Positions 31,899 to 48,619 of a stretch of DNA of 64,000 bases are shown piece by piece; position 1 is the stretch's first letter, and the number at the start of each line of letters is the position of its first letter. Source of the DNA: Thermoplasmata archaeon (GTDB lineage: Archaea; Thermoplasmatota; Thermoplasmata; UBA10834). The DNA lies in assembly GCA_014859835.1 (NCBI GenBank), contig JACZKW010000104.1, positions 51,608 to 115,607 on the forward strand. Direction: 5' to 3'. The notes beneath the pieces were generated by a model. That model saw only the letters and a program-made list of their open reading frames with translations, was not told where the DNA came from and ran no database searches. Position numbers and translations under genes: made by a program.

Positions 31899-33140
31899 AT
31901 GCGCATAGAGGTTAAGTATGGGGATGGAAGGGAAGTCGCTGACCTCCCAGACGCGAACATCGGCGAGATTGTGCACCCGAAGGAGTTGCCGCCAGTCGAT
32001 GAAGGCCGACTCCTCGAAGACGCAATAGTCAACCCAATCGGTTCGGACAACCTCGATAACTTCCTGAAGGGAGCCAAGAACGTTCTGGTCATCGTTAATG
32101 ATGCGACCAGACCTACTCCGACAGATAGAATACTGAAGGGGATCAACGCACACCTTGGGAACTCGGATGTCAGTTACCTCATCGCGACGGGTATGCACCG
32201 GGCACCCACAGAGGAAGAGTATCGGTTCATCTTCGGGGAAATGTACGATCAGATCAAGGAAAAGGTAGTAGCCCACGACTCGAAGCATAGCGAGATGATA
32301 TTCATCGGGACTTCGAAGAACGGCACGGAACTCAGATTGAACCGCAAGGTCATGGATGCTGACAGGATCCTTGTGATAAGCAGCGTAGAGCCACATTACT
32401 TCGCAGGATATACCGGGGGCAGGAAATCGTTCCTGCCAGGCGTGGCGGCGTATGAGACCATAGAGCAGAACCACAAGCTAGCCCTGAAGCTGGAAGCCCA
32501 GTCCCTCCGATTGAAGGGGAACCCAGTACACGAGGATATGGAAGAAGTCGTCCACGCTCTGAGAGATAAACGCATTTTCACGATAATGGTTGTCCTGGAC
32601 AAGGACCACCGGATATGCCATGCATCCGCCGGGGACCTGAAACGGGCTTTCCGAGGCGCCGTCAAGAAGGCGGATGAGGTATTCGTCGTCAAGCTCAAGG
32701 AAAAAGCAGATGTCGTGGTCGCGGTGACCGCGTTCCCATATGACATCGACCTTTATCAATCGCAGAAGGCGTTAGATAACGCAAAATACGCTGTGCGGGA
32801 CGGCGGGGTAATCATACTGGTCAGCGCCTGCAGAACCGGGGTGGGTCCAGAAACCTTCCTGAACCTCCTTGGGAGCGCAAATACACCAAAGGATGTGCTG
32901 GACAAGATATCTCACACATACAAGCTAGGCTATCACAAGGCCGGGAAGATGGCTGAGATAGGTCTCAAATGCAGAATGATGGCGGTTACCAAACTCGACC
33001 CTGCAATCGCTAGAAAAGCTCACATGGAGCCGATGCCCACCCTGCAGCAGGCCATCGATACGGCAATATCGGAACTGGGGCCATCATCCAAGGTGACCTT
33101 TATTATGGACGCGGTGATTACTGTGCCACAAGTTCAGTGA
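31899..33140 (+). CDS. LarA-family (nickel-pincer lactate racemase-like, DUF2088) protein
   Basis: The N-terminal DUF2088 and LarA C-domain architecture are present and the 413-aa length fits. Confidence 0.55.
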   Translation: MRIEVKYGDGREVADLPDANIGEIVHPKELPPVDEGRLLEDAIVNPIGSDNLDNFLKGAKNVLVIVNDATRPTPTDRILKGINAHLGNSDVSYLIATGMHRAPTEEEYRFIFGEMYDQIKEKVVAHDSKHSEMIFIGTSKNGTELRLNRKVMDADRILVISSVEPHYFAGYTGGRKSFLPGVAAYETIEQNHKLALKLEAQSLRLKGNPVHEDMEEVVHALRDKRIFTIMVVLDKDHRICHASAGDLKRAFRGAVKKADEVFVVKLKEKADVVVAVTAFPYDIDLYQSQKALDNAKYAVRDGGVIILVSACRTGVGPETFLNLLGSANTPKDVLDKISHTYKLGYHKAGKMAEIGLKCRMMAVTKLDPAIARKAHMEPMPTLQQAIDTAISELGPSSKVTFIMDAVITVPQVQ

Positions 33141-33174: not shown

Positions 33175-34284
33175 ATGGCGGACAAGAAGATAAAGGCGGA
33201 CCGGGCAAGGAAACTCGAGAAGGAGATGCTGACTTGCACTTTATGCGGCTTCTGCAAGAGCGTCTGCCCCTACTTCGAAGACAACCAATGGGATCCATCA
33301 GTTGCGAGAGGCAAAGTGATTCTTGCATACGGTCTTGTGCGCGGCGAGATACCCGCTGACGAATCTGTCGTGAAGCGACTATACCAATGCACCACCTGCA
33401 AGGACTGCGAACGACGGTGCCCGTCTAACATCCAGGTAGTCGATATAGTCGAAGCCGTCAGAGCTGACATCGTCGAAGCTGGCTGTGGGCTCGATGCACA
33501 TACTAAGATCAAGGAGAACGTCAAGAAGACGGGGAATCCATATGGTGAATCCGCAAAGGTTGACTTTGGATGGCCCATCAAAGAAGCTGAGGTAGGATAT
33601 TTCGTGGGATGTACTGCGAGATACAGGCTTCCCGAGATTGCCAGACACACCATCTCGATCCTGAAGAAGCTTAAAGTCGATTTCACGATGGTCGAGGAGG
33701 TCTGCTGCGGAAGCACGCTCAGAAGGACTGGCCAGGATGAAAAGATCGCATTGGAACTGATGAGGACGAACGTCGAGGCTGTGAAGAGGTTAGGCGTGAA
33801 GACCCTGATATTCACATGTGCGGGATGCCTCAGGATGTTCAGGAAGGAGTATCCTAAGCACTTGGAACTAGGCTTTGAGGCACTCCATCTCACCGAGTTC
33901 CTTGCAAGAAGGAAGCTAGAATTCAAACCATTCAAGAAGAGGATCGCATACCACGACCCTTGTCACATGGGGAGGCATCTGAAAGTCTATGATGACCCCA
34001 GGAAGATATTGAAGATGATTCCAGAATCGACCTATGTGGAGTTGAAGGATAGCAAGGATTCGGCGAAATGCTGCGGCGGTGGAGGAGGCGTGCGTTCAGC
34101 TGATCCTGACGCTGCTCAGAGGATAGCCTCACGAAGGGTGAAGGCGGCCTCGGATGTTGCTGATATCCTGGTCACCGCATGTCCATTCTGCGTGACCAAC
34201 CTTAGGTTCGGAAATGACCTGATCAAGGTCGATGTGGAGATAAGAGACATAGCTGAAATAGTCGATGACCTTCTCATCGAATGA
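33175..34284 (+). CDS. Fe-S oxidoreductase subunit with 2x[4Fe-4S] ferredoxin motifs plus two CCG domains (HdrD/GlcF/GlpC-like)
   Basis: It has CTLCGFCKSVCP and CTTCKDCERRCP motifs followed by two cysteine-rich CCG repeats (VCCGST, CCGGGGG). Confidence 0.65.
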   Translation: MADKKIKADRARKLEKEMLTCTLCGFCKSVCPYFEDNQWDPSVARGKVILAYGLVRGEIPADESVVKRLYQCTTCKDCERRCPSNIQVVDIVEAVRADIVEAGCGLDAHTKIKENVKKTGNPYGESAKVDFGWPIKEAEVGYFVGCTARYRLPEIARHTISILKKLKVDFTMVEEVCCGSTLRRTGQDEKIALELMRTNVEAVKRLGVKTLIFTCAGCLRMFRKEYPKHLELGFEALHLTEFLARRKLEFKPFKKRIAYHDPCHMGRHLKVYDDPRKILKMIPESTYVELKDSKDSAKCCGGGGGVRSADPDAAQRIASRRVKAASDVADILVTACPFCVTNLRFGNDLIKVDVEIRDIAEIVDDLLIE

Positions 34285-41867: not shown

Positions 41868-42400
41868 AGGAGAGCGTCGACTATATCCTGAAGAGCATTC
41901 AGCAAACGCTCGAGAACGAGGTCGAGGAGACAGACAAGTTTGTAGATGCCATTATGGAATCACGCAGGATATTCATCTATGGTGTCGGCCGTTCCGGCCT
42001 GATAGCCAAGGCATTCGCGATAAGACTGGTTCAGATGGGGTTAGAAGTCTATTTTGTAGGGGAGACCATCACACCCATTGTCGAGGAAGGGAACCTGGTG
42101 ATAATCGTGTCGCACACAGGTGAGACGATGTCCGCCATCCAGACCGCGAATATCGTACGAAGGGTCGGGGCGAGGGTGATCACGATCACTGCCAATGCCC
42201 ACTCGAAGCTCGCGAGCGCATCCAATCTAGTCATGTTAATACATCCTCCGAAGGATGATGACAGGAAGACTCTCGCACCGCTTGGAACCCTTTTCGAGAA
42301 TGCCACCCTGATCTATCTCGATAGCATGGTCGCCAGGCTGATGGAGAAGCTCGGGCAGAGTGAGGGGTCTCTCAGGAAGCGGCATGCGATCTGGGTCTAG
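41864..42400 (+). CDS. 6-phospho-3-hexuloisomerase (SIS domain)
   Basis: It carries a SIS phosphosugar-binding motif (IFIYGVGRSGLIAKAFAIRL), is 178 aa long, and is typical of PHI/HxlB. Confidence 0.7.
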   Translation: MKESVDYILKSIQQTLENEVEETDKFVDAIMESRRIFIYGVGRSGLIAKAFAIRLVQMGLEVYFVGETITPIVEEGNLVIIVSHTGETMSAIQTANIVRRVGARVITITANAHSKLASASNLVMLIHPPKDDDRKTLAPLGTLFENATLIYLDSMVARLMEKLGQSEGSLRKRHAIWV

Positions 42401-43527
42401 ACACGGTCCATAATCTCGTCCGTTTCGAGATTATCCGCAGATTCAGTTTTTGATTTGATCCTCTGCTTCTTTCGGATGAGATAGAACGCCAGCACAGATA
42501 CCGTTGCGACCGCAATGAGCCCGACGAACGCTGGCAGATATTCCATTATCCAATCGCTGACCCCACCAACAAATCCCGATTCATCGATTCCGATGATAGT
42601 CTCGTCTTCAATGGAACATGTGTCATTGGAGATAAGGAGGGCGGAATGCAGCATCAGACCAGCGCCTGTCGTGTAACACGATGAGCCAAGGATATGATCA
42701 TATGACGATGAACCGTTGCTCATCAGTGCGGCTGTGCCCCACAGAAAATGTGCCTGGGAGGCGTTATCCTCCTTGGTGTACATAATGCGCTGGACCACGT
42801 CATCTGTCTGCCTGAGAGGTCTCGTATAGTTTGCACCGAGAAGAGTCTCATCGTCCCAGCCAGACAAGAGCGTCAGAACCTCATCGGATTGGAAATCATC
42901 CTCGGTCACCACAAACGAATTCGTAGTTCCTCCACCTTGCAGGAATCGCTCAAGTGCGATGTAATCCGCAGATGTGGAATTGGTGATCCGAATCGTCATG
43001 TTTACGCGCATTTCAGTCTTGCCAGACACTATATAGCTGCCCGTCGGGGCGGTATAGGTTACAGAGTTCTCAGTCAAGCAGAACCAGAAAGTGACATTCG
43101 CCCAGTTCTCAATGATGGCTGGACCCTCTCCAGATATGTTGTACACCGATGTCTCCGCAGACATGCTGAACATGGCGTATTCGCCCATATCGGGTGTGTG
43201 ATCCTCGATTATCGAGGAGAGGTGCCATGTAGCATGATTGGAGTCGAAGAACACTGTGCCAACGGCTTCGGATCTGCAAAAAACTCCATTGTCATCAGAG
43301 TCATTGAACATATGGATTCGAGGGAAACTAGCCTCGAACGTCGGCGAGAATGGATCATCCGTATGCCAGAATATGATTCGTGGCCAGTCATTGGTCACGG
43401 CAACAGAAAAAATGCCGGATATCATGCTCACCTTGGTCTCGTCGGCTGAGACATATAGAGTGTAGTCGCCAGCTCCTGATACGTTCATGGGGAGGGACGA
43501 TGATACTATGGCGATCACCGCGATCAT
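42397..43527 (-). CDS. secreted, C-terminally anchored surface (glyco)protein, hypothetical
   Basis: A signal/TM helix is followed by a ~300-aa domain with more than 10 N-x-S/T sequons, a C-terminal TM helix and an RKKQR tail. Confidence 0.4.
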   Translation of the reverse strand: MIAVIAIVSSSLPMNVSGAGDYTLYVSADETKVSMISGIFSVAVTNDWPRIIFWHTDDPFSPTFEASFPRIHMFNDSDDNGVFCRSEAVGTVFFDSNHATWHLSSIIEDHTPDMGEYAMFSMSAETSVYNISGEGPAIIENWANVTFWFCLTENSVTYTAPTGSYIVSGKTEMRVNMTIRITNSTSADYIALERFLQGGGTTNSFVVTEDDFQSDEVLTLLSGWDDETLLGANYTRPLRQTDDVVQRIMYTKEDNASQAHFLWGTAALMSNGSSSYDHILGSSCYTTGAGLMLHSALLISNDTCSIEDETIIGIDESGFVGGVSDWIMEYLPAFVGLIAVATVSVLAFYLIRKKQRIKSKTESADNLETDEIMDRV

Positions 43528-43635
43528 GCAGGCAAGTCGACACACATTCGTCACTCTACATCCCCGACTCCTCAGTCCATAACACAAATGAACCCGAAAA
43601 ACCTTTCCAGAGATATCCGCACAGGCTATATGCAT

Positions 43636-44280
43636 TCATCTTGTTCTGAGCCGGCGAGTGCGTTGACGATTCTCGACAGTCCCACTTTCACGAGCCGCGC
43701 AAGTCAGGGCAAACGGAACCTCGCGATACCCCTGGTTAGAGAGCTTGAATACCTTGATATCGGCATTTATCGGATCAACTACAAGCGCAGAATGGAAAGG
43801 CTGGTCGAACATGGTCTTTTGCGTGTAGAGGTCCGTCTTTGAAAGGAAACACGTGTGTCCAGGATGGGAATGGTACCAGCCGACTATGACATAATCGAAT
43901 CCTGATCGATCGAGTTCGCCGAAGAGTCGCGGAAGCGCCCTGTGGTCAAACCTGACCTTCGCGGTTGTGTTCTTCAGAGAGGTTGTGCCGATATCCCAGA
44001 CGATCGTGTACGTCTCACCTCTCCAAGAACACACCTCGCCCAACATGAACCCCATCACCTCGAGTCTCTTTGGAGCCGATTCCTCCGCTTGGGACACGAT
44101 CTTGCAGTTCGCAGCTTCGGACAAGTACACCTCAAAAGTTGGCCCAGATTCAAGGACTCGATGGAATACAGAAAGGGATTCCTCAGATAACCAATCATGA
44201 GGACCAATGCTGTCAACTGACGGCGGCGCCGTCTTTGAGATCTTGAGCTGGATCTCGCTAACGATCCTGGGTCTAGGCAT
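43636..44280 (-). CDS. JAMM/MPN+ metalloprotease (Rpn11-like deubiquitylase/isopeptidase)
   Basis: It has the complete JAMM motif E...H-S-H-P-x7-S-x2-D (GWYHSHPGHTCFLSKTD). Its start overlaps the E2 stop by 8 nt. Confidence 0.8.
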   Translation of the reverse strand: MPRPRIVSEIQLKISKTAPPSVDSIGPHDWLSEESLSVFHRVLESGPTFEVYLSEAANCKIVSQAEESAPKRLEVMGFMLGEVCSWRGETYTIVWDIGTTSLKNTTAKVRFDHRALPRLFGELDRSGFDYVIVGWYHSHPGHTCFLSKTDLYTQKTMFDQPFHSALVVDPINADIKVFKLSNQGYREVPFALTCAARESGTVENRQRTRRLRTR

Positions 44281-44794
44281 CGGAACCCCCTACGATCCTG
44301 ATTCTGCGGTCCGTCTGATCCATCACCGTAGGAGGCTGATATCTCATACGATTGAAGTATGCAGCGGCCCGAGTACATGTGTCGCACCCGAACGGGTTTC
44401 TAGGATTCGGATTAACCAGAAGCGACTCGATGCCCCTTATGAATGTGGCCAAGGTCGAGCTGAAATCCCATTTCTCCAGCAATCTCGTACATACATAACC
44501 GCCGTCCTCGGGAGGCATTATGTTCGGATGGAATATGGGAGTCTGCCACTTGACGATCGGTTTCTCGACTGGATACTCCTCACTTATCAGAATCGCGATT
44601 TTGTGGACGAACCTGTGCACGATCTTGTTCTCCTCCCATGTAGGGCCTGGCACGCGGAGCATGTGCACGTTGATCAGGATGGGGAAGGAGGTAAGGGTCG
44701 GGTCAGAGACGGTGATATGGTGTCTGAGCTCACGCTGACATATCTCTATCTCGTTTTTCAAACGCTTTCTGAGCACATCCACCGGAAGAGACAT
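44273..44794 (-). CDS. ubiquitin-conjugating enzyme E2-like protein (UBC fold)
   Basis: It has an N-terminal helix (RLKNEI), the HPN motif (IFHPNI), the catalytic Cys context (GGYVCTRLL...W) and LLVNPNPRNP, which together form the canonical UBC signature. Confidence 0.8.
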   Translation of the reverse strand: MSLPVDVLRKRLKNEIEICQRELRHHITVSDPTLTSFPILINVHMLRVPGPTWEENKIVHRFVHKIAILISEEYPVEKPIVKWQTPIFHPNIMPPEDGGYVCTRLLEKWDFSSTLATFIRGIESLLVNPNPRNPFGCDTCTRAAAYFNRMRYQPPTVMDQTDRRIRIVGGSDA

Positions 44795-44799
44795 CCCGA

Positions 44800-44988
44800 C
44801 TATCCGCCTTCAGGATCTGGAATGAGTTCCAGCACATCTTCGGCAATTATCCCGGAATCCTTTATCGAGGAACCACCGCGAAGAACCTTCTTGCCTTTCC
44901 TTAGGACATATGCGCCCATGTCCTTGTTCCAAAAGGTGGCGGCACTCTCGATGATCTCATCGACGGTATTGTCACCCTCCAGCTCCAT
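44800..44988 (-). CDS. ubiquitin-like beta-grasp protein with a C-terminal Gly-Gly
   Basis: ...FWNKDMGAYVLRKGKKVLRGGSSIKDSGIIAEDVLELIPDPEGG-stop aligns with ubiquitin residues ~25-76, including the terminal GG. The in-frame upstream stretch to 45048 (AIFLTFRLKVKNAETGAAVE) supplies the missing beta1-beta2 hairpin but contains no ATG, GTG or TTG. Confidence 0.6.
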   Translation of the reverse strand: MELEGDNTVDEIIESAATFWNKDMGAYVLRKGKKVLRGGSSIKDSGIIAEDVLELIPDPEGG

Positions 44989-45111
44989 CTCGACTGCAGC
45001 ACCGGTCTCTGCATTCTTAACTTTGAGTCTGAAAGTCAGAAAGATCGCCTATACGACTGACGGCTGTTGACATTATATCGTTTTCGGATACCTGTAGCAA
45101 CACCGGAGGCC

Positions 45112-45894
45112 TCAGTGATTCGGACAAAGCGGATCGATATCGAATTCCAGCTCTTCTGAGACATTCCTCTGACCGTCGTAGAAGAAGGCATTTGACAGCA
45201 TCATATCAGCCCTACCGGATACGAACTTCAGGCACTCCCTGACCATGATAGCCGATATGACACTCGTAGTCGTGATCTCGGCTGGAAGTCGAGGTTCATG
45301 GAATACCACATCCTTCCCAGTACAGCTGAATCGAAGGTTCGCAACCTTCGCATGTGATCGGTTCATGCCGCATTGGATGCATGCGCCATTCGGGGGATTG
45401 GCAACGAAGACTCGGCCAACGAACCCCTCCATTCCGCCATCGATCAGTGTCTTCCCGAATCGATATGATCGTGAATTCACATGGAGCCGAGTAGGGATAT
45501 TGTCAAGACAACCAAGTATGATGTCGTGGACCCTATACAGCCCTTCATCCAATTCCTCGATCATGGATGAGACCGATTCGACATTGGCATGCTCAGAGAG
45601 GGCATTCATTCCACGGGCGACCACTTCGGCTTTGGGACTCCTTCTGGAAACGTCCTCTCGTGAGAAGAAGAGACATCTGTTCAGGTTCGAGCCCATGACG
45701 TGGTCCATATCGACAACTGTCACATAACGAAAGCCTGAGAGGACCAGGTTCTTCCCGACCTCGTTTCCCAAAGCACCTGCGCCAACCATCAGAACCTTGG
45801 TTCTGAACACCGCGTCGAGGTCAAGCCATCCTATCCGACGAGCTCTGTCGAAGGGCTCGTCATCTACCGCGCCTATCCTAAGCTGTTCCTCCAT
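45112..45894 (-). CDS. E1-like ubiquitin-activating enzyme (ThiF/MoeB/HesA family)
   Basis: It has a nucleotide-binding GxGxxG (VLMVGAGALGNEV), DxDxVxxSNLNR (VVDMDHVMGSNLNRC) and CxxC zinc/catalytic Cys motifs. It heads the operon. Confidence 0.8.
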   Translation of the reverse strand: MEEQLRIGAVDDEPFDRARRIGWLDLDAVFRTKVLMVGAGALGNEVGKNLVLSGFRYVTVVDMDHVMGSNLNRCLFFSREDVSRRSPKAEVVARGMNALSEHANVESVSSMIEELDEGLYRVHDIILGCLDNIPTRLHVNSRSYRFGKTLIDGGMEGFVGRVFVANPPNGACIQCGMNRSHAKVANLRFSCTGKDVVFHEPRLPAEITTTSVISAIMVRECLKFVSGRADMMLSNAFFYDGQRNVSEELEFDIDPLCPNH

Positions 45895-45933
45895 CGGTCA
45901 GTGGTAAGGTCCGAAATGGAATTAAAGGTTGCC

Positions 45934-47052
45934 TCAATCCCAGGTCAGCTTCCCCTTGCGCATCAGTTCGGTCTCTCGTCCCGAAGCGGACACTGCAGTT
46001 ATCGTTGGGGCTTTGACCAGGCCGTCCAAATGGATCAGGGAATCCGCGTCGCCATCATAGTTGCTCCCAACTGCGAAGTGGCATGTGCCATAGACCTTCT
46101 CGTCCTCGAGCATGTTTGCGACAATCCTAGCTTTCCTGTTGAGACCGATGCCCAGTTCACCGATGCTCTCTGTGTTCTTGATGTAACTCTCGACCTCTGA
46201 AGATTTCAACAGACCGTCATTGCCCATCGAGCGGGCCTTTCTCTTGGCGATCCTAATCGAGTTCCTCAGAGCATTGGCCTCCTTCGTGCCAGTTATCTTC
46301 GTTATGTATCCATCCTTGATGTGAGCAACGATGGGATCGCGTATCACGATCTCTCCATCGTTGAGGACGATGGACCCGTCGAATGCGATTACGCCATTGG
46401 TGGTGCCCAATGCGGGAGAGACATAGACTTCGCCCGAGGGGATATTCCCACCGCGACCCTTCTTCCTGAAATCCCCGTCATCCATCTTGGCGATGCGGCC
46501 CTTCAACCCGATCACAAGATCGGTTCCCCCTGGAGCGGTAACCCTGACTGTTTCGGAACCTTTGAGAATCGCGCATATCCTTTTGCAATCCTTCCTCAGA
46601 CGAGTGTAATCGATCGGGACTGTTCGTCTGAACATGTCGCGGGTGATACCAGGTGACCAGAAGGCCCTAGCCTTCTCCTCCTCGTAGAGCATTTCGAAAA
46701 TGTCATTGTACTTCCTCTTCCCAGTATATCCTTCGAGAAGGCCGTGCTTATCCTTCCCGAACCGGTCCTTGCTTATCGACAGGATCACATCAGGCTCCGA
46801 AGACATCGCTGTGATGACATCCTTCTCCGCGAAGTCGAACTGACCCTTCTCCCTCTGGAACATCAGGACAGGCTTGGCCTTGACATTCATCGCTGCATCG
46901 AAGATCGCCATCGATATCTCGCGAACATCCTTGTTCGGGTTCGATATTATCAGAATCCGCTCGTCCTTCTTCAGAGCTAGGACATCCTTGACCGCAGCTT
47001 TCGCGCCCACTGCCAGAGAACGATCGTACCCTCTGCCTTCTGAGAATTGCAT
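45934..47052 (-). CDS. putative aminopeptidase (M29/AmpS-like family)
   Basis: It shows overall pattern similarity to thermophilic M29 aminopeptidases and is 372 aa long. This call is tentative. Confidence 0.45.
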   Translation of the reverse strand: MQFSEGRGYDRSLAVGAKAAVKDVLALKKDERILIISNPNKDVREISMAIFDAAMNVKAKPVLMFQREKGQFDFAEKDVITAMSSEPDVILSISKDRFGKDKHGLLEGYTGKRKYNDIFEMLYEEEKARAFWSPGITRDMFRRTVPIDYTRLRKDCKRICAILKGSETVRVTAPGGTDLVIGLKGRIAKMDDGDFRKKGRGGNIPSGEVYVSPALGTTNGVIAFDGSIVLNDGEIVIRDPIVAHIKDGYITKITGTKEANALRNSIRIAKRKARSMGNDGLLKSSEVESYIKNTESIGELGIGLNRKARIVANMLEDEKVYGTCHFAVGSNYDGDADSLIHLDGLVKAPTITAVSASGRETELMRKGKLTWD

Positions 47053-47098: not shown

Positions 47099-48619
47099 TC
47101 AGTCGAGATAGTTCACCTTAACGGGACGAACGCCTGCCATTTCATCGTATTTCGATAGGAGTGCGATTATCTGCTCCTTGACTGATCGCTCGACCCCCAT
47201 CGGCTCGTGCTCTTTTAGGATTCTCCGCGCTTCGTTCCTCGCAGCGACTCTGAGAGGTTCCGTGTCCGAACCTATTATCGACGGAAGCATGGCGATCTTA
47301 GGTAGGAGCATCTCCTTCCGGAAATTGCGCAGGGTGTGCGGATCCTTCATGAAATAGCCGCCTGGACCGACTCTCGATATGACATCGAAACCCAATGTGC
47401 TGTCGGATACCTCTACCCCTCTCCAAGCGCGCAGGACGTTCCTCCACAACTCGCAATCCATCACGATCTGCTCGACCGACTCGACTCCAGAGCGCTCGAA
47501 ACCGCCGATCCCGACGATCTGATCGGCCCCGGCCATCGCGGGAAGGAGACTGCTGATCGCCTTCTGGTATCCGATCTCGTAGCCAGGCACACAGCCTGAC
47601 GCCGCAGTCCCGCCCACTTGTGAAGGCAGACCGTATCTGCGGGCCATCTGACAGCCAGCAGCGTTGATCAAAGCACCTTCGGTCGAGCCGGACAGGAAGA
47701 CGCCAGTCTTCATGTCCATCGGTCCAGACTCTGAGCTGTAGAGGATTGGCGCACCAGACTTTGCCAGCTCCGATATGACTGCGCCCGCGAGGTTCTCAGC
47801 GTTGACGAGCGAGATCGTACCTGCAAGCGTCACTGGTGCCACGGAGCCTGATATGGCCATGGACAGGTGGACGACTGGAAGGCCCGCCTTTGCGAACTCG
47901 ACGACAGCATCGATATCGCCCTCCTCGTATCTGAGCGGGGTTATGGGCGTGTGCGTGATCGAGATTATCGGCCTCTTGGCGAGTCCCTCCTCGGAACCGA
48001 CTATCGCAGCGGCCGCCTCTATCTGGAACCTGGCGTCCTCGATGGAACCCGCACCGTGCTGAATGTGTTTTCCAGTGTTGAATATCGATGCGACGAATTC
48101 GTGATTGTTGGAAACATCTGGTGGCAAATCTGTGGCGACGACTTCTGGCCAATATAGATCCACTTCGGGCATGGCATCGCATACACGCGTGAGGTCGATC
48201 AGATCCCTCATAGTAGCTTTGCGCCTCTTCTGGGTATCCATGTCCCAGACATCGGTCGGCTGTCCGTCATTAACGCCATATATCCTATCCGTTGCCGGAA
48301 GTCTCAGGTCCCGTCTCTTGTCTCTACCACACATCGTGAATTCCTTAGGGGCCTTGGACAACGCCTCCTTGACCATCGCCTCCGATATCTTCACGATCTG
48401 TGCATTCTCATCCACGATCCCCCCGGCGTCCTTCAACATCTTGAGAACCTTGGGGCTCGTCACCTTAATCCCCACATTCTCCAGTATCTTGATCGATTCC
48501 AGGTGCACTGCATCTTCCTGTTCAGAATTCAATGGATCGTAGACAGCCTTGGCCAACCTATCATCCTGAGGGTGAAACCTATTACTGCCATAAAAAACCC
48601 GAAGTCGCTGACGAGACAA
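47099..48619 (-). CDS. MttB-superfamily (trimethylamine methyltransferase-like) protein without pyrrolysine
   Basis: It has full-length (506 aa) MttB/COG5598 similarity. The ORF is continuous with no in-frame TAG. Confidence 0.7.
   Translation of the reverse strand: MSRQRLRVFYGSNRFHPQDDRLAKAVYDPLNSEQEDAVHLESIKILENVGIKVTSPKVLKMLKDAGGIVDENAQIVKISEAMVKEALSKAPKEFTMCGRDKRRDLRLPATDRIYGVNDGQPTDVWDMDTQKRRKATMRDLIDLTRVCDAMPEVDLYWPEVVATDLPPDVSNNHEFVASIFNTGKHIQHGAGSIEDARFQIEAAAAIVGSEEGLAKRPIISITHTPITPLRYEEGDIDAVVEFAKAGLPVVHLSMAISGSVAPVTLAGTISLVNAENLAGAVISELAKSGAPILYSSESGPMDMKTGVFLSGSTEGALINAAGCQMARRYGLPSQVGGTAASGCVPGYEIGYQKAISSLLPAMAGADQIVGIGGFERSGVESVEQIVMDCELWRNVLRAWRGVEVSDSTLGFDVISRVGPGGYFMKDPHTLRNFRKEMLLPKIAMLPSIIGSDTEPLRVAARNEARRILKEHEPMGVERSVKEQIIALLSKYDEMAGVRPVKVNYLD

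Follow-up and report, generated by a model that had tools for sequence, protein, structure and literature searches.

A conserved CUG codon as the likely start of a ubiquitin-like modifier gene in Thermoplasmata archaea

Introduction

In the SAMP systems, in which SAMP/MoaD/ThiS modifiers are served by a UbaA-type E1, no canonical UBC-fold E2 takes part. The operon of Candidatus Caldiarchaeum subterraneum, on the other hand, encodes ubiquitin, E1, E2, a small RING E3 and Rpn11 (PMC3082918, PMC5654768, PMC6043591), and bacterial defence operons of the Bil/Bub type combine a ubiquitin-like protein (Ubl) with E1, E2 and JAB (bioRxiv 10.1101/2023.09.26.559546). The presence of E2 genes in Thermoplasmatota has been mentioned previously (bioRxiv 10.1101/2023.07.25.550441); in the literature searched, the coverage of which was incomplete, this mention of Thermoplasmatota E2 sequences was all that could be found on such an operon in Thermoplasmata. 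Here we analysed an E1-Ubl-E2-JAB gene row in a stretch of 64,000 nucleotides (nt), hereafter called the window, from a Thermoplasmata archaeon (assembly GCA_014859835.1, contig JACZKW010000104.1, positions 51,608 to 115,607 of the forward strand). The Ubl gene of this row has no canonical start codon for its N-terminal part.

Initiation at CUG is itself a known, rare phenomenon. Translation table 11 allows CTG, ATT and ATC as starts, and bacterial infC starts at AUU, which couples the synthesis of IF3 to IF3 activity. In archaea, near-cognate initiation sites were seen by ribosome profiling of Haloferax volcanii and were set aside in that study (PMC7261190), and in Methanosarcina mazei 5% of the new small open reading frames (ORFs) started with CTG (PMC11456600). 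These profiling studies listed such sites without characterising conserved examples (PMC7261190, PMC11456600). A description of a conserved CUG-initiated archaeal gene was not found in the literature searched, with the same incomplete coverage.

A first-pass annotation of the window, made from the letters and a list of ORFs, had pointed out that the only ATG of the Ubl gene lies in the middle of the fold. It had offered non-canonical initiation at ATC or CTG, a frameshift, a sequencing indel or amber read-through as explanations. From the analysis presented here it appears likely that the gene encodes a complete modifier of 79 amino acids (aa), the translation of which would start at a conserved and gene-specific CUG at 45039-45037 behind a Shine-Dalgarno (SD)-like element, and not at the ATG at 44988.

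Results

Absence of a canonical start codon ahead of beta1

The Ubl gene lies on the minus strand, and the region was read directly on this strand. A TAA (45075-45073) is followed by the seven codons TGT CAA CAG CCG TCA GTC GTA and by an in-frame TAG (45051-45049). From the TAG the frame continues with GCG ATC TTT CTG (45039-45037) ACT TTC AGA CTC AAA GTT AAG and AAT GCA GAG ACC GGT GCT GCA GTC GAG to ATG (44988-44986), and it ends with GGC GGA TAG (44802-44800). Between the TAG and the ATG there are 20 sense codons and not a single in-frame ATG, GTG or TTG. Both the missing start codon and the position of the TAG were thereby confirmed as the first-pass annotation had given them. It had counted 15 upstream codons, which is too few, and its view of an in-frame conserved stretch held: the 17 codons from the CTG on are conserved, while the preceding residues AIF (GCG ATC TTT) lie outside the family protein, their codons belonging to a non-coding element for ribosome binding. 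The TAG at 45049..45051, an ordinary stop codon in this genome, closes the frame four codons upstream of the CTG.

The first in-frame ATG (44986..44988) corresponds to Met18 of the 79-aa protein and is the start chosen by gene callers, which gives a product of 62 aa with a C-terminal GG followed by the stop. The full coding sequence proposed here for the ubiquitin-like modifier occupies 44800..45039 (79 codons plus the TAG at 44802-44800) and would read (M/L)TFRLKVKNAETGAAVEMELEGDN...LELIPDPEGG*. The small ORF that had been reported to overlap the upstream codons (MSTAVSRIGDLSDFQTQS, 45017..45073, minus strand) is indeed present in a frame offset by one base, with its ATG at 45073 and its stop at 45019-45017; it stands outside the system.

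An exact look-up of the E2 protein returned six contigs: two from NCBI metagenome-assembled genomes (MAGs) and the others from Logan assemblies that represent four sequencing runs. Five of these six contigs span the start region (L001-L004, L006); their DNA was identical, and in all five the Ubl was called with 62 aa. The MAG L008 (JAHIRF010000011.1) has the same start region as the window and differs in a few bases further upstream. As the DNA of the start region is the same in six further assemblies, obtained from different sequencing runs and MAGs, it does not result from a sequencing or assembly error. We concluded that the absence of an ATG, GTG or TTG start ahead of beta1 is a genuine feature of this gene.

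Restriction of the homologous codon to NTG

With the conceptual translation of 82 residues as the query, 377 homologues with 76-98% identity were obtained from Thermoplasmata MAGs. Most of them are 79 aa long with the N-terminus M[ST][VF]R[IL]KVKNAETG, and some were called at 82-103 aa with a protein starting MVFL.... In a profile search of 1.84 billion representative proteins only 70 hits were obtained, most of which aligned positions 4-82 of the profile to positions 1-79 of the protein, profile position 4 being the CTG of the window. Truncated calls of 62-69 aa, like that of the window, make up two of the representatives in this library. Most homologues begin at the position of the CTG, and not at the MELEGDN with which the 62-aa call starts.

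For the comparison of codons 80 species-level loci were fetched and anchored on the invariant KNAETG motif. Among distinct sequences, the codon homologous to the CTG of the window (45037..45039) was CTG in 26, ATG in 23, TTG in 12 and GTG in 7. In the approx. 75 species compared, the codon was NTG (N being any base) wherever it could be aligned; a few distant species have a shifted N-terminus. In the sequences in which this site would read Leu, 38 of 38 codons were NTG (CTG or TTG). Of the codons at six internal Leu positions that are conserved in the Ubl genes, only 36% were NTG, and CTC was dominant (51%). The naive probability of this restriction is 2e-17, a value inflated by shared ancestry, though synonymous sites are near saturation. 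Judged by its codon usage in these alignments, the homologous codon behaves as an NUG-restricted start codon and not as a sense codon.

The window is not alone in lacking a canonical start: about ten other species have no usable one ahead of beta1. No canonical start was found between the upstream stop and beta1 in L023, L029, L031, L037, L038, L039, L040 and L063, and in L025 and L026 the sole canonical start codon is a GTG inside beta1. L025, L029 and L031 have their stop five codons upstream, and none of the codons in between (GTC/GCT GGT GGT YTT) is near-cognate; therefore the CTG is the only plausible start in these three loci. The closest relative, L007, reads TAG GTG GTC TTT CTG where the window reads TAG GCG ATC TTT CTG. 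The GCG codon of the window (45046..45048, minus strand) is thus a GTG in L007, as it is in L009, these two being the closest relatives, and it was called there as the start of an 82-aa version.

A separate case was seen in L058 (CAZOLG010000002.1, a Methanomassiliicoccales MAG), where the homologous start position holds an ATT that is preceded by GGTGAG, with a TTG two codons downstream. This ATT may be a further example of a non-canonical start within the family.

Purifying selection on the upstream codons

Nei-Gojobori counts were made over the 16 codons between the CTG and the ATG at 44988. The window differed from L007 by three synonymous and no non-synonymous changes and from L009 by four synonymous and no non-synonymous changes. 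Against more distant species the ratio of non-synonymous to synonymous differences per site (pN/pS) was about 0.03-0.15, the same as in the remaining gene. The branch that leads to the window carries three unambiguous synonymous changes and no non-synonymous ones. We concluded that the 16 codons are under strong purifying selection. The conservation of the upstream stretch, which the first-pass annotation had conceded might prove random, is more than chance, because there are 377 homologues at the protein level and pN/pS is about 0-0.15.

Two clades without a canonical start were looked at in the same way. In L038/L039/L040/L063 pS was 0.06-0.34 and pN 0.01-0.02, and in L025/L029/L031 pS was 0.15-0.48 and pN 0.01-0.03; the N-terminal pN was 0.00 in both clades. 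By these counts the gene is clearly maintained in clades that lack a canonical start.

SD-like element and putative promoter

An SD-like element, AGGCGATC, is present at 45043..45050 on the minus strand, 3 nt upstream of the CTG. The relatives have AGGTGATC or AGGTGGTC at this place, with GGTGGT or GGTGAT 3-4 nt upstream of the homologous codon, and GGTGA also precedes the ATG of other genes in the window by 4-7 nt. Pairing energies were calculated for the 14 nt upstream of a codon against the anti-SD GAUCACCUCC in 74 distinct sequences. The energy dropped to a pronounced minimum right at the codon that corresponds to the CTG, with a median of -8.7 kcal/mol. The background pairing in the window had a median of -2.6 kcal/mol and a first percentile of -9.6 kcal/mol, and the window's own value of -8.8 kcal/mol corresponds to the 2nd percentile of this background. 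Ahead of the upstream GTG/GCG codon the median was -1.8 kcal/mol and ahead of Met18 -5.5 kcal/mol.

Subclades differ by a 1-nt indel between the SD and the NTG, as in GTG GTC CTC CTG versus GGT GGT CTT CTG. The element is conserved as nucleotides while the reading frame shifts, and it is therefore a non-coding signal. The codon that is GTG in the sister species and GCG in the window most probably belongs to the SD instead of being a start.

The spacer of 72 nt that follows the E1 stop carries a conserved CCGAAAAC-N-ATATAA. In the window this BRE/TATA-like (BRE, B recognition element) promoter element, CCGAAAACGATATAAT, lies at 45072..45087 on the minus strand in the E1-Ubl spacer, and the 5' edge of its TATA is about 38 nt upstream of the CTG. 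In about 50 species the sequence of the element is conserved and the distance from the TATA 5' edge to the start codon is 36-41 nt. In archaeal promoters the centre of the TATA box is usually near -26. On this basis the predicted transcription start would be about 7-12 nt ahead of the CTG, which places it at the SD-like element or inside it. A promoter of its own and a very short leader are therefore probable for the Ubl gene.

Two further motifs were noticed in the spacer. The 10-nt GCTACAGGTA (45089-45098, minus strand) adjoins the BRE/TATA-like element on its 5' side and is kept in about 40 species (spacers L009-L042), and GTCCAGTA is found about 15-22 nt before the start codon in many relatives. 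A regulator of the transcription of the modifier gene could bind at these motifs.

Predicted fold of the 79-aa protein

The 79-aa protein was modelled with AlphaFold2 on an alignment of 86 sequences, which resulted in a predicted local distance difference test score (pLDDT) of 90.6 and a beta-beta-alpha-beta-beta-3(10)-beta topology. The elements of the model are beta1 (2-9), beta2 (15-21), a helix (26-36), beta3 (44-48), beta4 (51-53), a short helix (59-62) and beta5 (69-74). When compared to the PDB with Foldseek, the model matched ubiquitin, SUMO, NEDD8, Hub1 and Caldiarchaeum ubiquitin (6fnn_C) with template modelling (TM) scores of 0.80-0.86 over 74-79 residues; the TMq of the match to 6fnn_C was 0.85. 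On the level of sequence the relationship is far less visible: no Pfam ubiquitin match was obtained for the modifier at E <= 0.1, and a profile search of the PDB sequences gave full-length but weak ubiquitin matches (E 0.03-1). The model agrees with the first-pass assignment of the gene as ubiquitin-like and with the proposal that the upstream codons encode beta1 and beta2.

Met18 is invariant in the alignments and sits in beta2 of the model. Since the ATG at 44988 lies inside beta2, the 62-aa product would be without beta1 and half of beta2; its start in mid-fold, as noted earlier, is thereby borne out, and in the modelled fold the upstream residues are needed. A model of the 62-aa form had a pLDDT of 55, but it was run without an alignment, which makes the comparison unfair, and it was not used as evidence.

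The C-terminus reads ...IPDPEGG directly before the TAG at 44802-44800, with a GG that does not vary across the alignments. In the comparison of L009-L087 the stop codon, usually TAG, follows the GG at once in most relatives, as it does in the window. About 20 related species have sense codons after the GG (e.g. P0015, ...PEGGSL), which would imply a precursor that needs cleavage.

Gene specificity and evolution of the proposed CTG start

The start codons of neighbouring genes were counted in the same genomes. The homologous starts of E2 (79 relatives) were ATG in 74, GTG in 3 and TTG in 2; those of E1 were ATG in 49 and GTG in 3, with no TTG; those of JAB were ATG in 46, GTG in 7 and TTG in 6; and those of SIS were ATG in 35, GTG in 1 and TTG in 7. 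None of these about 250 starts in E1, E2, JAB and SIS homologues from approx. 80 genomes was CTG. The modifier gene has CTG in 23 species other than that of the window.

A general use of CTG starts in the genome was considered and rejected on the basis of these counts and of the window. When the window was searched for CTG codons that follow an SD and lie ahead of the first canonical start, one candidate was obtained, at 33121. This CTG (33121-33123, plus strand) stands behind GCGGTGATTA (-8.6 kcal/mol); the 369-aa ORF at 33175-34284 has its first ATG 18 codons further downstream. It is probably a chance occurrence, as the 18-aa extension LLCHKFSEHHWLHHRSASH is unlike coding sequence and MADKKIK, which follows it, has the look of a natural N-terminus.

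In a rough neighbour-joining tree of the modifier and E2 proteins, the deep Methanomassiliicoccales-like branches have ATG, and a large derived clade that includes the window has CTG or TTG with occasional GTG or ATG. The start codon changed its state at least 15 times on this tree, at least 8 of them between CTG and non-CTG. Across L010-L087 the median SD pairing became stronger from ATG (-6.4 kcal/mol) over GTG (-8.8) and TTG (-9.5) to CTG (-11.0). The difference in SD strength between CTG and canonical starts gave p = 1e-4 in a Mann-Whitney test that ignores phylogeny. A stronger SD at weaker start codons suggests compensation.

Operon and neighbouring genes

The modifier gene is flanked on the minus strand by genes for E1-, E2- and JAB-type enzymes. 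An E1-like activating enzyme of the ThiF family (260 aa, 45112..45894; PF00899, E = 9e-44) lies upstream. An E2-like conjugating enzyme of the UQ_con family (173 aa, 44273..44794; PF00179, E = 8e-14) with an HPN motif and a Cys in ...FHPNIMPPEDGGYVCTRLL... follows, and then a JAB/MPN metalloprotease (214 aa, 43636..44280; PF01398, E = 4e-11) with the JAMM motif HSHPGHTCFLSKTD (HxHx7SxxD). The order E1-Ubl-E2-JAB is chromosomal, and E1, E2 and JAB are intact and syntenic in all 80 species' loci. From this genomic adjacency conjugation of the modifier by the adjacent E1 and E2 is predicted. The ATG of E2 comes 5 nt after the Ubl stop, and the ATG of JAB (44280) overlaps the end of E2 (stop 44273-44275) by 8 nt; this spacing suggests that Ubl, E2 and JAB are translationally coupled.

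The row is preceded by a gene for an M29 peptidase (45934-47052, minus strand). JAB is followed by a gene for a 412-aa protein with a hydrophobic C-terminal anchor (42397-43635, minus strand), for which no Pfam match was obtained; it is kept after JAB in about half of the related loci, and its N-terminus is poorly conserved. The genes abut from 42397 to 47052, which leaves no space for a further ORF, and none of them encodes a RING E3, the search for such a gene having been confined to the operon. Further upstream a homologue of the MttB methyltransferase family (47099-48619, minus strand; PF06253 in the identical contig L001) was found without an in-frame TAG, and it is probably a non-pyrrolysine member. 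An ORF of 287 aa on the plus strand (44207-45070) runs antisense to E2 and Ubl; it is a mechanical ORF and nothing suggests that it is a gene.

Discussion

Proposed initiation and alternative explanations

In the mechanism that we propose, the SD-like AGGCGATC (45050-45043) would pair with the 3' end of the 16S rRNA and position the small ribosomal subunit, the CTG following the element at a distance of 3 nt. The initiator tRNA would then read the CUG as a near-cognate codon, so that the protein would begin with Met. Transcription from the BRE/TATA-like promoter, approx. 38 nt upstream, would provide the gene with its own transcript with a very short leader. As the protein ends in GG directly before the stop, it would be ready for activation by the adjacent E1, after which the adjacent E2 would transfer it and the adjacent JAB protease would remove it.

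Several points speak against initiation at the CUG. The case for it, here as in the relatives, is made of comparative sequence analysis and modelled structure. Met, Val or Leu at one position would also fit a conservative internal hydrophobic residue, and the codon-usage test treats related sequences as independent. The anti-SD GAUCACCUCC is a general archaeal sequence and may not be that of this organism; a search of the window for rRNA that would give the true anti-SD found none. In the window the SD, the weakest of its subclade, is mismatched at its centre (C instead of T). The predicted transcription start at or within the SD would in addition make classical SD-guided initiation on the promoter-proximal transcript uncertain. 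The last point concerns the in-frame GTG which the sister species have three codons upstream: it could be the real start, possibly a leaderless one, which the lineage of the window has lost recently.

If so, the change of GTG to GCG would have left the gene in the window silent, decaying or weakly expressed. L007 and L009 read TAG GTG at exactly the position of the GCG, the distance from the TATA-like box would put the predicted transcription start near that GTG, and the SD-like match of the window is weaker (-8.8 kcal/mol) than that of the sisters (-12.1 and -12.7 kcal/mol). Nevertheless, such a loss seems improbable to us, since neighbouring GGTGGT subclades have the same nucleotides out of frame and no GTG, and the approx. 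ten species without a canonical start keep the gene under strong purifying selection. Furthermore, the branch of the window shows synonymous changes only, E1, E2 and JAB are intact, and the allele is common to several strains and assemblies, such as L008, which differs upstream. An ATC, the other codon that the first-pass annotation had put forward beside the CTG, lies at 45045-45043 and would lead to an 81-aa (M)FLTFRLKV.... It is near-cognate, it is listed in translation table 11, and it is present in the window and in L009; in all other relatives the codon is GTC, GGT or another one. It is located inside the SD-like element with zero spacing from it, and the proteins of the family begin two codons downstream, which makes initiation there very unlikely. 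Of the two codons proposed earlier it is thus the CTG that is favoured.

The 62-aa product from the ATG at 44988 is the only canonical ORF, it was the choice of gene callers in every assembly of the species, and its Met18 is invariant. That it is the real protein, a beta-grasp without beta1 and half of beta2, is hard to believe when the 16 codons upstream are under the same purifying selection as the remaining gene, no conserved SD stands ahead of Met18 and the family fold, as modelled, would need beta1 and beta2. The remaining proposals of the first-pass annotation have next to nothing in their favour. A +1 frameshift from the ORF at ATG 45073 would use the overlap of this small ORF in the offset frame, but the ATG is missing in L007, L010 and L011, among others (L007 has ATATCG and L010 ATAACA at this site), and the site overlaps the TATA-like box. 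A programmed frameshift was likewise rejected, as no upstream ORF start is conserved and the overlap region is conserved in the Ubl frame only. Amber (TAG) read-through might be considered because related archaea of this class include pyrrolysine users, as is generally known; the frame upstream of the TAG, however, has no start codon before it reaches the TAA, and TAG ends 13 of the 55 long ORFs in the window, the Ubl gene included. An indel from sequencing is contradicted by the identical DNA of the other assemblies.

Significance of a probable CUG start in the modifier gene

With initiation at the CUG as the reading that we favour, all gene calls seen for this sequence give a 62-aa fragment that is 17 residues short, and truncated forms also serve as cluster representatives in a large protein library. 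Modelling, expression or trees that start from the 62-aa records would use a broken fold; the correct coordinates would be 44800-45039. Among the CUG starts that have been maintained over a long time in archaea, this gene is possibly one of the clearer cases from comparative data, and it brings its own internal controls, namely the NUG-only site, an SD that rises as the start weakens, and neighbouring genes free of CTG starts. It thereby offers a testable example of how stringently start codons are selected by an archaeal initiation machinery akin to that of eukaryotes.

We also considered that the weak start might be a selected, gene-specific control point and no tolerated accident, with the modifier gene of one Thermoplasmata clade, unlike its operon neighbours, having exchanged ATG for CUG or UUG as its SD became stronger. 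This would couple protein tagging to the translational or stress status of the cell via the stringency of aIF1/aIF2, in analogy to the AUU start of infC. This is a speculative proposal, and we think it rather unlikely. As a compact E1-Ubl-E2-JAB system in Thermoplasmata/Methanomassiliicoccales without a RING E3 in the operon, the locus is of relevance to the distribution of ubiquitin-type conjugation among archaea other than the Asgard and TACK groups.

Relation to known systems

The gene shares with known prokaryotic near-cognate starts that ATG, GTG and TTG are absent, that a near-cognate NUG stands behind an SD-like element and that gene callers miss or truncate the product. It differs from them in that the CUG persists in one orthologous gene of archaea that are far apart in evolution, in which it alternates with TTG, GTG and ATG. 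The SD is stronger here, the neighbouring genes are without CTG starts, and the start is proposed from the comparison of sequences.

The present operon is of the eukaryote-like archaeal ubiquitylation type that was first found in Caldiarchaeum: in both, a small GG-ended beta-grasp modifier is encoded beside an E1 of the ThiF type, an E2 of the UBC type (with HPN and Cys) and a protease of the JAMM/MPN class. In the present row, by contrast, there is no RING E3, the order is E1-Ubl-E2-JAB, and the modifier of this species has no C-terminal pro-peptide and no significant Pfam ubiquitin hit. The host belongs to the Thermoplasmata/Methanomassiliicoccales, and the modifier family is narrow, with 70 representatives in 1.84 billion. 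The SAMP/MoaD/ThiS modifiers are likewise beta-grasp proteins that end in GG, and their E1 also belongs to the ThiF family and has about 260 aa, but the locus in the window has a canonical UBC-fold E2; no Pfam ThiS or MoaD match was obtained for its modifier.

The Bil/Bub-type operons encode the same four protein classes together. PADLOC, in the 2023 version, which may lack these families, gave generic E1-E2 and JAB domain hits only and none for the Ubl or the E2. In contrast to the defence operons, the locus in the window is chromosomal, and the conservation of its flanking genes in approx. 80 species suggests that it was inherited vertically and is not a mobile defence island.

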